From positions 71,168 to 135,167 of the forward strand of contig JBAYKW010000001.1 of the NCBI GenBank assembly GCA_041664365.1: DNA of 64,000 bases, written 5' to 3'. The first letter of the stretch is position 1, and each line of letters begins with the position of its first letter. The translations under genes and the position numbers were made by a program. The notes under the pieces are model-generated. The model did no database searches. It saw nothing but the letters and a program-made list of their open reading frames with translations, and had not been told where the DNA came from. Positions 28,495 through 32,563 of this stretch are shown here, piece by piece. Origin of the DNA: Patescibacteria group bacterium. GTDB lineage: Bacteria > Patescibacteriota > Patescibacteriia > UM-FILTER-42-10.

Positions 28495-30144
28495 ATGTCC
28501 CAAACAATATATCGAAAATATCGGCCGCAGTCTTTTAAAGATCTGGTTGATCAAAACCACATACGCATCACACTGATTAACGAATTAGAAAGCGGGAGAA
28601 TCGCGCATGCTTATTTATTTACCGGACCGCGCGGTGTGGGTAAAACAACGATCGCGAGGCTTTTCGCGAAATCCCTGAACTGTAAAAAACGCAAAAAAGA
28701 TTCTGCCGAACCGTGTAACGAATGCTCATCCTGCAAAGACATTATGAAAGGACGGCTACTTGATCTGATTGAAATTGACGCCGCATCTCATACCGGCGTA
28801 GATAATGTCAGACAAAATATAATTGACAATGCCCGCGTTGCAACTGTCTCAAGCACTTACAAAGTATTCATCATAGATGAAGTACACATGCTTTCAATTT
28901 CAGCATTTAATGCTCTATTGAAGACATTGGAGGAACCGCCGGAAAATGTTGTGTTTATCCTAGCGACGACGGAGGTACACAAAGTGCCACAAACCATTAT
29001 TTCCCGTTGTCAGCGTTTTGATTTTCAGAAGGTTGGTGTAAAAGATCTGGTTCTACGGTTGAACACTATTATTAGTCAGGAAAAAGTGCAGATTGATGAT
29101 GCGGTTTTGAAGGCGATTGCCCTGGCATCTGACGGTAGCGTGCGTGATGCGGAAAGTATGCTGGGACAGGTACTGTCACTTGGTGAAAAGAAAATTACCA
29201 TGGACCACATTGATCTGATCGTTCCTCATTCAGACGATACTTTGGTAATCCAATTTTTGAGTTTGGTTGCGATGGGCAACACGCCTGCATCAATAGAACT
29301 GGTAAACAGACTGGTAGATGAAGGCGGTAATGTCAGGAATTTTGTTAAAAATATAATAGAGGTTCTGCGGAGAATTATGTTACTGAATATTTCCAGTTCG
29401 CTGGAGAAATTTGTTGTGTATGAAATGGATGATGAACTCCAGAAAGAAATGACAAATATATCAAATCGTTATGATTCTAAAGAATTGATCCGATGGATTA
29501 ATATTTTCCTAGAAGTTGAACCCATGATTAAAACACAGACTGATATTATACAGCTGCCACTTGAAATAGCTGTTCTTGAGATTATTGAAGGAGATAAAGA
29601 TATATCATTACCGGGTGAAAAAAATCGACCGTCATTTACACCTAGTTTTCAATCTCCGGTTAAAAAGAGTAAAGCCGAAATAAAACCATTACCAACGGTA
29701 CAAAGGATTGTTAAAGAAGAAATTGAACCGATATTTGCTGAAAAGAAGAAGGATGCGAAAACAGATGAAATAAAAAAAGAGGTGCCGATTATTAAACTGT
29801 CAGAAATTGAGAAAAAGTGGAGAACGTTTTTAAAAAAATTAAAAGCGCATAATCATTCTCTGTCGCTTACTTTAAGTGTAGGGGAAGTTGTAGAAATCAG
29901 CGGTAAAATCATTACCATCGCTTTTGGTTTTCAATTCTATATGGACCGGGTGTGGGAGGCAAAAAATAAGCAGATTATTGAAAATGTACTGGATGAGGTT
30001 TATGAAACCCCACTTACTTTCACTTGTGTAATTGATAATGCTCTGAGGGATAAAAAGATACCGGAACACAATAAAAGTGAAGAAGAAAGCAGTGAATTGA
30101 AGGATGCGCTTGACACCTTCGGTGGTAAAGTGGTAGAAGGTTAA
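28495..30144 (+). CDS. dnaX: DNA polymerase III subunit gamma/tau
   Basis: Clamp-loader AAA+ motifs GPRGVGKTT. Zinc module CNECSSC. Walker B IIDEVHML. SRC-containing sensor (SRCQRF). Confidence 0.93.
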   Translation: MSQTIYRKYRPQSFKDLVDQNHIRITLINELESGRIAHAYLFTGPRGVGKTTIARLFAKSLNCKKRKKDSAEPCNECSSCKDIMKGRLLDLIEIDAASHTGVDNVRQNIIDNARVATVSSTYKVFIIDEVHMLSISAFNALLKTLEEPPENVVFILATTEVHKVPQTIISRCQRFDFQKVGVKDLVLRLNTIISQEKVQIDDAVLKAIALASDGSVRDAESMLGQVLSLGEKKITMDHIDLIVPHSDDTLVIQFLSLVAMGNTPASIELVNRLVDEGGNVRNFVKNIIEVLRRIMLLNISSSLEKFVVYEMDDELQKEMTNISNRYDSKELIRWINIFLEVEPMIKTQTDIIQLPLEIAVLEIIEGDKDISLPGEKNRPSFTPSFQSPVKKSKAEIKPLPTVQRIVKEEIEPIFAEKKKDAKTDEIKKEVPIIKLSEIEKKWRTFLKKLKAHNHSLSLTLSVGEVVEISGKIITIAFGFQFYMDRVWEAKNKQIIENVLDEVYETPLTFTCVIDNALRDKKIPEHNKSEEESSELKDALDTFGGKVVEG

Positions 30145-30286
30145 ATAAGAATATTACTGTCACGCGGTAATTGGGGGATTATTTTTTTGAAAAAATCATT
30201 GGGGAGTAGCTCCGTTCATTCCACAAACGGAATGCACGGACGAGCAAGCGGTAATTATTTACATACTTGCTTTAACAATACATCAT

Positions 30287-30340
30287 TGGGGAGTAGCCAA
30301 GTGGTAAGGCAACGGGTTCTGGTCCCGTCACCGGGGGTTC
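30287..30340 (+). pseudogene. tRNA-Gln 5' fragment (positions 1-54, lacking the 3' half)
   Basis: 53/54 nt identical to 30667-30720. It is followed by unrelated GC-rich hairpins, not by the T-loop 3' half or the acceptor 3' strand. Confidence 0.6.
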
Positions 30341-30392
30341 TGCGCCCGAGGCGCACTCGCCTCCGGCGAGGAATCCTAAAATCTAAAACACA

Positions 30393-30662
30393 ATGTATTC
30401 AACCTATGTAATAAAAAGTATACATTTCCAAAGTAGGTACGTTGGCAGTACAGATAATGTTGAAAAAAGAGTAGAAGAACATAATAACGGCAAGTGTAGA
30501 TATACTAAGGGACGATCACCGTGGGTATTGATTTATAAAGAAGATTTTAATAGCAGATCTGAGGCAATGAAAAGAGAAAAGTTTTTGAAATCCGGTAAAG
30601 GTAGAAAATTGCTTGATGAAAAACTGAAAAAAATAGCAGATATCGAAAACAAAAATATTTAA
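30393..30662 (+). CDS. GIY-YIG (URI-domain) nuclease family small protein
   Basis: 89 aa. YVIKS (GIY), YVGST (YIG), RVEEHNNG and W/E/N motifs, as in COG2827/UPF0213 proteins. Confidence 0.8.
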   Translation: MYSTYVIKSIHFQSRYVGSTDNVEKRVEEHNNGKCRYTKGRSPWVLIYKEDFNSRSEAMKREKFLKSGKGRKLLDEKLKKIADIENKNI

Positions 30663-30666
30663 ACGA

Positions 30667-30740
30667 TGGGGAGTAGCCAAGCGGTAAGGCAACGGGTTCT
30701 GGTCCCGTCACCGGGGGTTCGAATCCCTCCTCCCCAGCCA
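30667..30740 (+). tRNA. tRNA-Gln (anticodon CTG)
   Basis: Manual cloverleaf fold. Acceptor TGGGGAG/CTCCCCA. D-arm GCC-AAGCGGTAA-GGC. Anticodon stem ACGGG/CCCGT with loop TTCTGGT. T-arm GGGGG-TTCGAAT-CCCTC. Discriminator G and encoded CCA. Confidence 0.85.
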
Positions 30741-30759
30741 AAAGGATTTTAGAAAGAAT

Positions 30760-30790
30760 CAACGTGAATAGAGCACGTTGTTTTTTTATT
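30760..30790 (+). terminator. Intrinsic terminator downstream of tRNA-Gln
   Basis: CAACGTG-AATAGAG-CACGTTG followed by TTTTTTTATT. Confidence 0.6.
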
Positions 30791-30897
30791 AGTGTGGATT
30801 CGAACGGGCAGAAGCGAAACAATCCGGAGCGAAGTGAAGGAGCAGTAGAGCGTCGACAAATGCGAGCCTGCGTAGCATTTGGCGCTGCCCAGGACGA

Positions 30898-30917
30898 GAA
30901 TCCCTCCTCCCCAACCA
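30898..30917 (+). repeat. Direct repeat of the tRNA-Gln 3' end (att-like)
   Basis: GAATCCCTCCTCCCCAACCA matches tRNA 30721-30740 (GAATCCCTCCTCCCCAGCCA) at 19/20 positions. It lies inside the high-GC island. Confidence 0.5.
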
Positions 30918-30990
30918 CGGGTCATCAGACCCTTCACCTGTCACAACCAAGCAAGCTTGGTTGTTTTAGGTTGCGGGTCTGTGCCCCTTT

Positions 30991-31040
30991 CCCCAACCCG
31001 CCAAGGGCGGGTCGGGGGCCCCATTTTTTGGTTTTATTTT
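30991..31040 (+). terminator. GC-rich intrinsic terminator inside the island
   Basis: CCCGCC-AAG-GGCGGG plus a GGGGGCCCC palindrome, followed by ATTTTTTGGTTTTATTTT. Confidence 0.45.
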
Positions 31041-31183
31041 CTGTCTCGGCGAAGATGAGCTCGGCTAGTCAAGCCAATGCCTTGCGCGCTCCTGTTGCGC
31101 TCAGGATAAATAATGAATAAAGATGTTTGTTTATAAATGGGATTTGAACGGATGTGCTAAGCAAGGACGTTCTGGCTATTATT

Positions 31184-31212
31184 GACATGCCAACCTACAT
31201 AATGTAAGTTGC
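31184..31212 (+). promoter_or_regulatory. Sigma70-type promoter of the Cys-rich gene
   Basis: TTGACA, 17-nt spacer, TAAGTT. Followed by RBS AAAGGGAGG 8 nt before the ATG. Confidence 0.45.
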
Positions 31213-31253
31213 ACACTGCGTAGCTCATCTTCAGTCTGAAAGGGAGGAAAAGC

Positions 31254-31763
31254 ATGAGCTTCAGTGACTTGATATTGCGGATGTACTGTCTTAGTCCATT
31301 CCGCTTCACGGCAACCAAGTGCGGTCATCGCACAAAGCGTACCGGAAAGTTGTCCGCGTTCGGACTCACTGTGATCTGCAGGAGCCCCATGAACACTGAC
31401 GGTTCGGTGGATTACTGTCATGACTGCCTTGGCAGTATGACCATCCAATGCGTGTGGTGCGGTGAACCGATTCTTGTCGGTGATCCGATTACGCTGTACA
31501 CGCCTGCGATTGCACTGTTTGCGCCGGTAGATGAATGGTGTATTCCCAAACATGCGGTCATCTACCGCAAAGAGCATCCTGTTCAACTCGTCGGTTGCCT
31601 CAGAATGAGTTGCGCCGATTCCAGCGCGGATCGAGCAGGGTTCTGGCTTCCGGGTGAAGACGGTAAAGGCCGTGTCCTGCGGGTACAAACTGCACTTGAA
31701 GCCATCCTTAACGCACCTGTATCGTCAATCATGCTGGTGCGCGACACGCACGACTTCGCTTGA
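31254..31763 (+). CDS. Cysteine-rich hypothetical protein (high-GC island cargo)
   Basis: 169 aa with 11 Cys, including CHDC...CVWC. Strong SD. About 56% GC. The antisense ORF 31179-31688 is judged spurious. Confidence 0.5.
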   Translation: MSFSDLILRMYCLSPFRFTATKCGHRTKRTGKLSAFGLTVICRSPMNTDGSVDYCHDCLGSMTIQCVWCGEPILVGDPITLYTPAIALFAPVDEWCIPKHAVIYRKEHPVQLVGCLRMSCADSSADRAGFWLPGEDGKGRVLRVQTALEAILNAPVSSIMLVRDTHDFA

Positions 31764-31923
31764 AGCGATGAATTTGACGTTCATTCCTCTCGATAACCAT
31801 CCGGCTAGGTAGCCACCAAATTCCGGTAGGTATGGCGGGCTGACATTTCATGATGTTAGCTCTTTTTATTGGAAAAATGACTGCATAATTAAACCCCTAT
31901 ACTTAGTTTTATATTTTTTTAAA

Positions 31924-31987: not shown

Positions 31988-32563
31988 ATGGGAAATTTAG
32001 CAGGTTCTCAAACAGAAGAAAATTTGCTCAAAGCATTTGCCGGGGAATCACAGGCCAGAATGCGTTATGATTATTTTTCCAAGCAGGCAAAAAAAGAAGG
32101 ACTGGAACAGATCTTCGGGTTTTTTGAGGAGACGGCGATGAACGAACGCGAGCATGCCAAAGTGTTTTTTAAATTCCTGGAAGGCAATATGGTGGAAATT
32201 ACCGCGACCTATCCGGCGGGAAAAATCGGAACTACATTGGAAAACCTGAAAGCGGCGGCGGATGGGGAGAACGAAGAATGGACGAAGCTCTATCCGGAAT
32301 TTGCAAAAGTTGCTGACGAGGAAGGATTTAAGGAAATTGCCAATGCCTTTCGGAATATCGCTAAAGTAGAGGAACAACACGAAAAAAGATACAGAAAACT
32401 GTATCAAAATCTGGACGAAGGAAAAGTATTTGTCAGTGGAGATAAAATAGTCTGGAAATGTCGGAATTGCGGCTATTTGCATGAGGGCACAAAGGCTCCG
32501 AATATCTGCCCGGCTTGCCAGCATCCGCAGGCTCACTTTGAAATATTTAAACAAAATTATTAA
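31988..32563 (+). CDS. rbr: Rubrerythrin
   Basis: Ferritin-like diiron domain (two EXXH motifs). C-terminal rubredoxin-like CxxC...CxxC (CRNCGY...CPACQHP). Confidence 0.9.

Follow-up and report, generated by a model that had tools for sequence, protein, structure and literature searches.

A GIY-YIG minigene between a hairpin-tagged partial copy and an intact tRNA-Gln gene: a putative selfish cassette family resident in bacterial tRNA genes

The tRNA-Gln(CUG) locus

The stretch of DNA analysed here, which we call the window, comprises 64,000 nucleotides from a Patescibacteria group bacterium (contig JBAYKW010000001.1 of assembly GCA_041664365.1, positions 71,168 to 135,167), and our subject is a locus within it at which a minimal GIY-YIG gene lies between a hairpin-bearing partial copy of tRNA-Gln and the complete tRNA-Gln gene. 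The complete gene, tRNA-Gln(CUG) at 30667-30740 on the forward strand, is the sole tRNA gene in the window according to both ARAGORN and Rfam; it is intact and presumably functional (Rfam 60.8 bits), and the gene order around it is dnaX (28495-30144), tRNA-Gln(CUG), then a rubrerythrin gene (31988-32563). By blastn its sequence equals that of the tRNA in L003, a related locus with an empty site. Upstream on the same strand, positions 30287-30340 repeat tRNA positions 1-54 as far as the GGTTC of the T-loop (blastn E=6.5e-23) with a single mismatch, a C>T change in the D-loop, just as an initial annotation made from this sequence had described. The annotation also held this fragment to be non-functional as a tRNA, and taken alone it is indeed not one, since it scores 20.2 bits against an Rfam cut-off of 29 and ARAGORN makes no call.

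Directly after GGTTC lie two GC-rich hairpins, TGCGCC-CGA-GGCGCA at 30341-30355 and CTCGCC-TCC-GGCGAG at 30356-30370, which together form a twin hairpin on the forward strand (30341-30370) within the T-loop of the partial copy; both had been recognised initially, with coordinates one to two bases off. The six bases that follow, GAATCC (30371-30376, forward strand), are the T-loop remainder of the partial copy (tRNA positions 55-60) and belong to the host sequence, not to the element. Because the hairpins are followed by this remainder, the twin is a 30-nt insertion inside the T-loop, between TTC and GAATCC.

Next on the same strand is an open reading frame (ORF, 30393-30662) for a stand-alone GIY-YIG nuclease of 89 amino acids (aa) of the UPF0213 / Slx1-like type. 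The proposed GIY-YIG assignment is well supported: residues 1-71 match Pfam PF01541 with E=6.8e-16 (58.8 bits against a cut-off of 22.6), and the closest solved structures are the UPF0213 proteins BH0048 (1ZG2, 4.6e-7) and EF2693 (1YWL, 2.8e-6), followed by SLX1 (4XLG, 0.0095). It belongs to the same family as the UPF0213 / stand-alone Slx1-like proteins (YhbQ, YazA, BH0048, EF2693), with the same minimal domain and the same motifs. Y5, Y16-x-G18, R26, H30-N31, Y48-x-E50 and E57-AMKREKF are kept in at least 80% of 81 relatives; these motif positions align with the UPF0213 structures, and the catalytic residues among them are presumed. A homology search returned an identical 89-aa protein (P0121), and the database names of relatives are generic ("GIY-YIG nuclease family protein", "putative endonuclease"). 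NCBIfam contains no fitting model (grpIintron_endo reaches 14.9 bits against a cut-off of 56), and the PADLOC defence-system models give no meaningful match to the protein. No integrase gene, whether for a tyrosine or a serine recombinase, lies between the window repeats, where the GIY-YIG gene is the sole ORF, and Rfam searches of the locus (E up to 10) and of the whole window returned nothing except the tRNA, and no ribozyme core.

Recurrence of the cassette and its hairpins at tRNA genes

With the 89-aa protein as query, a genome collection gave 80 loci; they come from Patescibacteria, Margulisbacteria, Bacteroidota, Ignavibacteria, Acidobacteriota, Fibrobacteria, KSB1, Gammaproteobacteria and others. 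At 55 of these 80 loci a tRNA gene on the same strand lies within 100 nt of the ORF, downstream as in the window in 28 cases and upstream in 27, and at 13 more it lies within 500 nt, for a total of 68; of the 12 loci that are without a tRNA, 7 stop at a contig edge. The tRNAs represent 17 types and share the strand of the ORF in 89 of 93 cases. At 57 of the 68 loci the ORF is flanked on its far side by an incomplete copy of the neighbouring tRNA, often tagged with a hairpin. The layout recognised initially, a partial tRNA followed by a GIY-YIG gene and a complete tRNA, is thus real and recurs far beyond the window. Across loci, the cassette consists of an 80-90-aa GIY-YIG (UPF0213/Slx1-like) gene together with conserved GC-rich hairpins inside a disabled partial copy of the host tRNA, and the nuclease gene shares the strand of the tRNA and always lies between its tagged partial copy and its intact copy.

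Both polarities of this arrangement occur. The junction had initially been placed at the 5' end of the tRNA; it actually lies in the T-loop (TTC|GAATCC), and about half of the relatives have the opposite polarity to the window, tRNA-ORF-3' fragment. The 5' partial copy had also been singled out as unusual, which is correct by comparison with integrase-driven islands, but within the family duplication of the 5' side is as frequent as that of the 3' side. In 35 of 69 cases a protein and its nearest relative reside at tRNAs that carry the same amino acid, a proportion that implies both fidelity to tRNA type and frequent switching.

Genes known to mobilise DNA do not accompany the family. Among the nearest flanking ORFs of the 80 loci, integrases account for 2 of 109 (Phage_integrase), no transposase family recurs and housekeeping genes are commonest; an HUH (Y1) transposase is found neither in the element nor as a recurring neighbour at these loci. 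Viral contigs yielded no member of the family, phage and plasmid records essentially none, and nothing comparable came from any of them; the plasmid matches are annotated yazA. At two loci (L064 3244-3266; L186, site 112) the last codons and the stop of the ORF come from the acceptor and D-arm of the tRNA-like copy, with TAG in the D-loop, and in L027 and L070 a hairpin contains the ORF stop.

The cassette carries more than the GIY-YIG gene, which had been supposed to be its sole cargo, because the twin hairpin is a conserved and covarying part as well. Its units have the form T-N-C-G-C-C, three loop bases, G-G-C-G-N-A, with two units per insert, and a twin occupies the same T-loop position in L010, L011, L012, L013, L014, L015, L017, L018, L019, L020, L022, L024 and L027; T-loop twins adjoin GIY-YIG genes at tRNA-Gln, Asn, Tyr and Ser. 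At the tRNA-Tyr of L024, whose T-loop is TTCAAATCC, the six bases after the twin are AAATCC, as in its own tRNA, so that they must be host-derived. In an alignment of 14 distinct T-loop twins, 99.4% of cells are paired, 6 of 12 pairs have changed on both sides (18 cells) and one-sided changes are absent. The twin hairpin is accordingly a conserved, covarying cis-element of the cassette family. Folding of single sequences favours one long hairpin over the twin, whereas the covariation supports the twin. Stem mismatches of the G:T kind (11) and of the A:C kind (14), compared as a measure of pairing in RNA versus DNA, are about equally rare.

Not every member carries the twin in the T-loop. The strict hairpin motif occurs in 45 of the 80 loci and an adjacent twin in 20 of 80; up to 160 nt from the ORFs, the density of perfect GC-rich hairpins is about 13 times that of the remaining sequence of the loci. 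Elsewhere in the family the anticodon arm of the partial copy gives way to a single TCCGCC-NNN-GGCGGA hairpin (tRNA-Arg in Acidobacteriota, Lys in KSB1, Asn in Bacteroidales, Met in Flavobacteria, Pro in Gracilibacteria), and in further members the twin follows tRNA position 12-17 or 34. Hairpin variant and insertion position track protein clade. Outside this locus, the 64-kb window has the motif only in one terminator and as one weak match. We also observed nested hairpins, which occupy loops of other hairpins as well as the D-loop of the partial copy (L002 6602-6633 and 6670-6729; L128); this looks as if hairpins insert into hairpin loops.

Hairpin-tagged tRNA fragments also occur without the gene. 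A metagenome scan for the T-loop twin pattern found at least 140 sites in at least 119 loci, and among the matches listed, 114 sites have enough flanking sequence to judge, with a GIY-YIG ORF within 700 nt at 67 of them and none at 47. At a typical ORF-less site a full tRNA and a spacer of 8-60 nt are followed by GGTTC, the twin and GAATCC, and then by the 3' end of that tRNA once more; some such sites are tandemly repeated, and L112 has the polarity of the window minus the ORF. Pairing of ORF-less with ORF-bearing sites by blastn is dominated by self-matches of the hairpins and left 2 usable pairs, tRNA-Ser and tRNA-Pro. In the tRNA-Ser pair the ORF, which has an in-frame stop, exactly fills the gap between the tRNA 3' end and GGTTC-twin.

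Several loci bear signs of amplification and decay. Tandem arrays with at least two units of ORF plus hairpin-tagged tRNA copy are present at L054 (2929-3647), L063 (2578-3325) and L074 (2329-3330), and tandem repeats of ORF-less units (tRNA 3' end, spacer, twin) at L117 and L119. Single genomes may carry copies at different tRNAs (L010/L012, L016/L018). The copy beside tRNA-Ser(CGA) in L098 (site 10) has an in-frame stop within the conserved C-terminal motif and is therefore a decaying copy. At two loci (L005 7741-7870, L026 2880-3400), displaced tRNA fragments derive from an allele other than the working copy; their acceptor stems differ, so whole tRNA alleles appear to have been replaced.

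Syntenic relatives and older layers at the same tRNA

Through dnaX homologues, the best of which are annotated as Patescibacteria group bacteria, we found eight syntenic loci, L001-L008, all with tRNA-Gln right after dnaX. The complete cassette (5' copy, twin, GIY-YIG gene, tRNA) is present in L001 and L002 (dnaX identity 87%), which carry extra hairpin material in the D-loop and inside the first hairpin and are without the segment B and 3' fragment described below. L003 and L004 (dnaX 82%) are without the cassette and the 5' copy; they have a 157-nt homologue of window positions 30741-30897 and then a decayed 3' fragment. In L007 and L008 (dnaX 75%) the tRNA is preceded by an outer hairpin-bearing 5' fragment and followed by segment B, a 3' fragment, segment C and another 3' fragment, with no GIY-YIG gene, and in L005 a different tRNA-Gln allele is followed by the displaced 3' end of the window-type allele. 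The presence or absence of the cassette in related genomes, proposed initially as a comparison worth making, thus varies: at the dnaX/tRNA-Gln site the window, L001 and L002 have it, whereas in L003-L008 the site is empty. This pattern indicates that the cassette represents one event in the lineage of the window and L002.

Comparison of the window with L002 shows purifying selection on the ORF (ratio of nonsynonymous to synonymous divergence, dN/dS, 0.17), and its synonymous divergence (pS) is 0.269, as against 0.55-0.68 for dnaX, rubrerythrin and two other neighbours. In 2000 random samples of 88 dnaX codons the lowest pS was 0.447, still above the value of the ORF. The low pS implies that the cassette is younger than the host genomes, or that its silent sites are otherwise constrained.

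The same tRNA gene carries other fragments of itself. The outer one, at 30195-30254 on the forward strand, consists of ATCAT plus tRNA positions 1-11 (30200-30210), a 34-nt insert (30211-30244) holding the hairpin TCCGTT/AACGGA, and tRNA positions 12-21 (30245-30254), as recognised by blastn of the tRNA against the locus, direct reading and the match in L007. The sequence ATCATTGGGGAGTAGC, found at both 30195-30210 and 30282-30297, is by itself a borderline match (blastn E=0.013); it is strengthened by the continuation of the tRNA (positions 12-21) after the 34-nt insert and by the like arrangement at L007 7661-7714, a locus without a GIY-YIG gene. The initial suggestion that the tRNA 5' end had been targeted twice by the same module does not survive this comparison, in that the 16-nt copy is part of an older hairpin-bearing fragment common to L007, where the GIY-YIG gene is lacking.

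On the other side, a displaced 3' fragment of tRNA-Gln, GAATCCCTCCTCCCCAACCA (30898-30917, forward strand), corresponds to tRNA positions 55-74 with 19 of 20 positions in agreement, its discriminator being A, not G. Between it and the working tRNA lies a conserved insert, segment B (30796-30897, forward strand; GGATTCGAAC-GGGCAG...CTGCCC-AGGACGA), which recurs downstream of tRNA-Gln in L003, L007, L010 and partly L005; among these only L010 has the GIY-YIG gene. A search for the segment B motif found none beyond the tRNA-Gln loci of close relatives and L010. The segment has no Rfam match and is not stably folded by energy (fold z-score -0.14). We considered whether it might be like transfer-messenger RNA (tmRNA), as prompted by GGATTCGAAC...GGAC, and rejected this: ARAGORN and Rfam find no tmRNA, the acceptor is without a G3:U70 pair, and TTCGAA is simply palindromic. 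From its distribution, segment B together with the displaced 3' fragment represents a separate event that is older than the cassette, and the outer 5' fragment is likewise a separate older event at the same tRNA.

Further downstream, segment C (30918-31030) forms a long hairpin followed by a terminator hairpin and T-run, with a fold z-score of -6.1 and no Rfam match. It is non-coding yet 97.3% identical to L002, where adjacent spacers are 78-81% identical and gene dS exceeds 1, and it is present in L007 too; we regard it as a candidate small RNA. Window positions 31141-31920 are GC-rich (~53%), with overlapping 169-aa ORFs on both strands that have no Pfam match, and the left border carries a second GGGATT(C/T)GAACGG motif. 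In relatives this slot holds unrelated genes, a phosphoribosyltransferase in L002 and others in L003, L005 and L007.

Nature of the cassette

We think it probable that the locus is a tRNA-Gln gene occupied by one of a widespread group of tiny selfish, homing-like cassettes that live in tRNA genes and spread by recombination. A selfish or homing-type module was also the initial proposal for this locus; it is still the best reading and generalises to many loci. Because the ORF lies between the tagged partial copy and the intact tRNA, the partial duplication keeps the tRNA functional. The gene is probably co-transcribed with the tRNA, on a transcript that would run from a promoter-like site (TTTACA-17-CATCAT, 30258-30286, forward strand, directly 5' of the 54-nt copy) to a terminator-like hairpin and T-run 3' of the tRNA (30760-30787, forward strand, conserved in L003), spanning the 5' copy, the hairpins, the ORF and the tRNA. 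Most likely recombination is stimulated by breaks that the nuclease introduces, in the manner of homing endonucleases; the tRNA sequence would serve as portable homology for entry into the same tRNA of another genome, and the hairpins may be the structure that the nuclease recognises.

The closest known parallel is SegB, a GIY-YIG endonuclease of the tRNA cluster of T-even phages, which promotes its own inheritance together with the adjoining tRNA region (PMC2330249; PMC13096335) and causes units of tRNA-Tyr + segB to be amplified in tandem by way of microhomology that the tRNA 5' end shares with the segB 3' end (PMC13096335; PMC2330249). The likeness extends to the GIY-YIG gene directly beside a tRNA, the tandem arrays and the ORF 3' ends that overlap tRNA-like sequence. 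SegB differs in being a larger, multi-domain phage protein, whereas our 89-aa protein, of the Slx1/UPF0213 branch, consists of nothing but the catalytic domain; unlike SegB, the present family is chromosomal and absent from the viral collections searched, and conserved hairpins in partial tRNA copies are not reported for SegB loci.

Several observations weigh against a homing-like cassette. The protein is a single catalytic domain without a DNA-binding module such as those of I-TevI, Seg and other GIY-YIG homing enzymes, and we infer its nuclease activity and its substrate only. Because the intact tRNA of the carrier has an unbroken T-loop, a simple model in which the nuclease cuts the T-loop of empty alleles gives the carrier no immunity. 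Hairpins of conserved sequence inside host-derived copies of many tRNA types are left unexplained by the model, and since ORF-less sites are common among the matches listed (47 of 114), the hairpins may not depend on the ORF. Same-genome copies are only 72-75% identical in protein, so that no recent burst is seen. The pS result comprises 48 synonymous sites in one genome pair, and overlapping RNA or DNA structure could constrain these sites. The promoter-like site is weak and at chance level, because the consensus scan gave 2 sites where 1.9 are expected.

There is a modest chance that the Slx1-like nuclease and the hairpins constitute a new mobile system, which would either install hairpins in folded tRNA-gene loops or use a tRNA-like RNA to guide the nuclease; if so, this would be a mobility mechanism without integrase, transposase or intron, and the ORF-less sites would be its non-autonomous derivatives. 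Put as a rival to the homing-like cassette, the idea is that the palindromic modules are the true mobile units, moved by the GIY-YIG nuclease, or that the hairpin-tagged tRNA-like RNA directs the nuclease to tRNA genes, and in this form we find it unlikely. Its attraction is that the insertions are always in loops (T-loop, anticodon loop, D-loop), including the loops of other hairpins (L002, L128), that two insertion sites are alike (TTC|GAA in the T-loop and TTT|GAA in the anticodon loop of tRNA-Gln UUG, L057 and L031), that ORF-less sites are common among the matches listed and that the ORF runs at its 3' end into the tRNA-like copy. Nucleases of the Slx1 type are structure-specific, which together with the SLX1 structure match also speaks for it. 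A hydrolytic GIY-YIG enzyme alone, however, cannot join DNA strands, the motif is not dispersed through the window, and partial copies are usually without one strand of the acceptor stem, so they have no whole-tRNA fold.

We give little credence to the possibility that the tRNA-linked gene benefits the host by encoding a housekeeping or stress enzyme, such as a nuclease that acts on RNA or DNA in tRNA metabolism; it would be co-transcribed with the tRNA, and the tagged pieces would be elements for the processing or stability of its mRNA. Such a role would fit the purifying selection on the ORF, its strict co-orientation with the abutting tRNA, the ORF stop codons within the tRNA-like copy or a hairpin, and hairpin positions that respect tRNA structure (T-loop, anticodon arm, D-loop). 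A 2006 survey treated stand-alone Slx1-like proteins as vertically inherited repair-type enzymes, and describes prokaryotic Slx1-like GIY-YIG proteins fused or linked to methyltransferases, one of them TrmH-like and tRNA-modifying (PMC1564403); linkage to tRNA genes, partial tRNA copies or hairpins is not reported in it (PMC1564403). Unlike the UPF0213/Slx1-like proteins surveyed there, the subfamily at hand behaves as a mobile cassette: its distribution is patchy, with close syntenic relatives that are without the gene, its partner tRNA varies widely (the same amino acid in just 35 of 69), it forms degenerate copies, tandem arrays and several copies per genome, and its synonymous divergence is well under that of the flanks. 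Because G:T is not in excess over A:C in the stems, nothing in them is specific to pairing at the RNA level.

It is also improbable that the locus is an ordinary integration hot spot, at which the tRNA fragments would be attL/attR scars of integrase islands and the GIY-YIG gene a surviving passenger. Williams is said to have described in 2002 that integrase islands target tRNA genes, including the T-loop or anticodon-loop region. Genes for tRNAs are classic integration sites; islands and prophages that enter there bring a copy that restores the tRNA, and a partial direct repeat remains (bioRxiv 10.1101/2022.07.05.498093). Direct tRNA repeats are shared by the present loci (54 nt and 20 nt in the window; 57 of 68 related loci); moreover, the interval from tRNA-Gln to rubrerythrin has different cargo in each relative, and displaced 3' ends of other tRNA-Gln alleles are stacked downstream of the tRNA (L005, L007). 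Unlike integrase islands, the cassette is of ~330-420 nt and has no integrase, a gene that makes up just 2 of the 109 neighbouring ORFs; the ORF lies within a few bases of tRNA and hairpins in dozens of unrelated genomes, duplication is equally frequent on the 5' side, and conserved junction hairpins are not a feature of integrase att sites. Segment B, the 3' fragment and the variable downstream cargo are themselves probably due to ordinary integration at this tRNA.

The 54-nt copy (30287-30340) joined to the displaced 3' fragment (30898-30917) gives a perfect second tRNA-Gln(CUG), with 2 differences from the working copy, and in this formal sense the 5' copy and a downstream piece do make a valid tRNA, as the initial annotation had allowed for. 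That they form one split or intron-containing gene, with a 557-nt insert removed at the RNA level, is nevertheless very doubtful: Rfam finds no intron, the supposed intron would enclose a complete tRNA-Gln together with that gene's own terminator, and removal of the 30-nt twin restores a complete tRNA at only 6 of the 140 sites among the matches listed. No intron is implied, because the halves do not travel together: L002 has the 5' half only, and L003, L005 and L007 have the 3' fragment without the 54-nt copy or the cassette. From these independent occurrences, the apparent split tRNA is a chance product of two separate events. Collapse or chimerism of the assembly at a repeated tRNA can practically be dismissed, for although 54-nt repeats can mislead short-read assemblers, the filled locus of the closest relative is present in two separate records from ENA and JGI/NCBI (L001, L002), the same architecture recurs in ~60 unrelated genomes and >100 metagenome contigs, and copies differ by point substitutions and carry lineage-specific nested insertions.

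Other systems resemble the homing-like cassette in part. The IS200/IS605 (TnpA) and REP/RAYT elements have sub-terminal hairpins, insertion by a short specific sequence, fixed orientation and ORF-less derivatives, and their enzymes are HUH tyrosine transposases; unlike them, the present loci have no HUH transposase, and GIY-YIG enzymes are hydrolytic. Introns of groups I and II differ in that Rfam finds no ribozyme core at our locus and the insert encloses a complete tRNA. In fungal mitochondria, Allomyces double-hairpin elements have been linked to a mobile endonuclease ORF that duplicates a gene end. As far as they are described in the text that cites them, the Allomyces elements, the GC clusters of yeast and the palindromes flanking tRNA genes in Neurospora (cited in PMC2800124) share with our loci short GC-rich hairpins or double hairpins, AT-rich genomes, signs of mobility and a frequent position beside tRNA genes; within the same limits, these elements are organellar and dispersed, have no fixed link with a GIY-YIG minigene or with the T-loop position, and show no sequence relationship to the hairpins described here.

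The open-access literature and bioRxiv preprints that we searched contain no account of GIY-YIG minigenes flanked by tRNA copies or of T-loop hairpins. The cassette is thus apparently an undescribed homing-type or tRNA-targeting selfish element, with a modest chance of a new mechanism. If this is correct, the generically annotated 80-90-aa GIY-YIG proteins include a large cross-phylum group of selfish tRNA-gene cassettes, and an abundant orphan protein family gains a function. The placement of hairpins in the T-loop or anticodon arm offers a concrete hypothesis for the target of the smallest GIY-YIG nucleases and for how an element might reside harmlessly in an essential gene. Such cassettes would represent a third route of tRNA-gene colonisation beside integrases and introns, and the parallel with SegB suggests that nucleases of this kind may drive tRNA gene amplification in cells too. 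They would also explain many of the stray tRNA fragments and tRNA-like sequences found in bacteria, including the small genomes of Patescibacteria, in which most tRNAs are single-copy.

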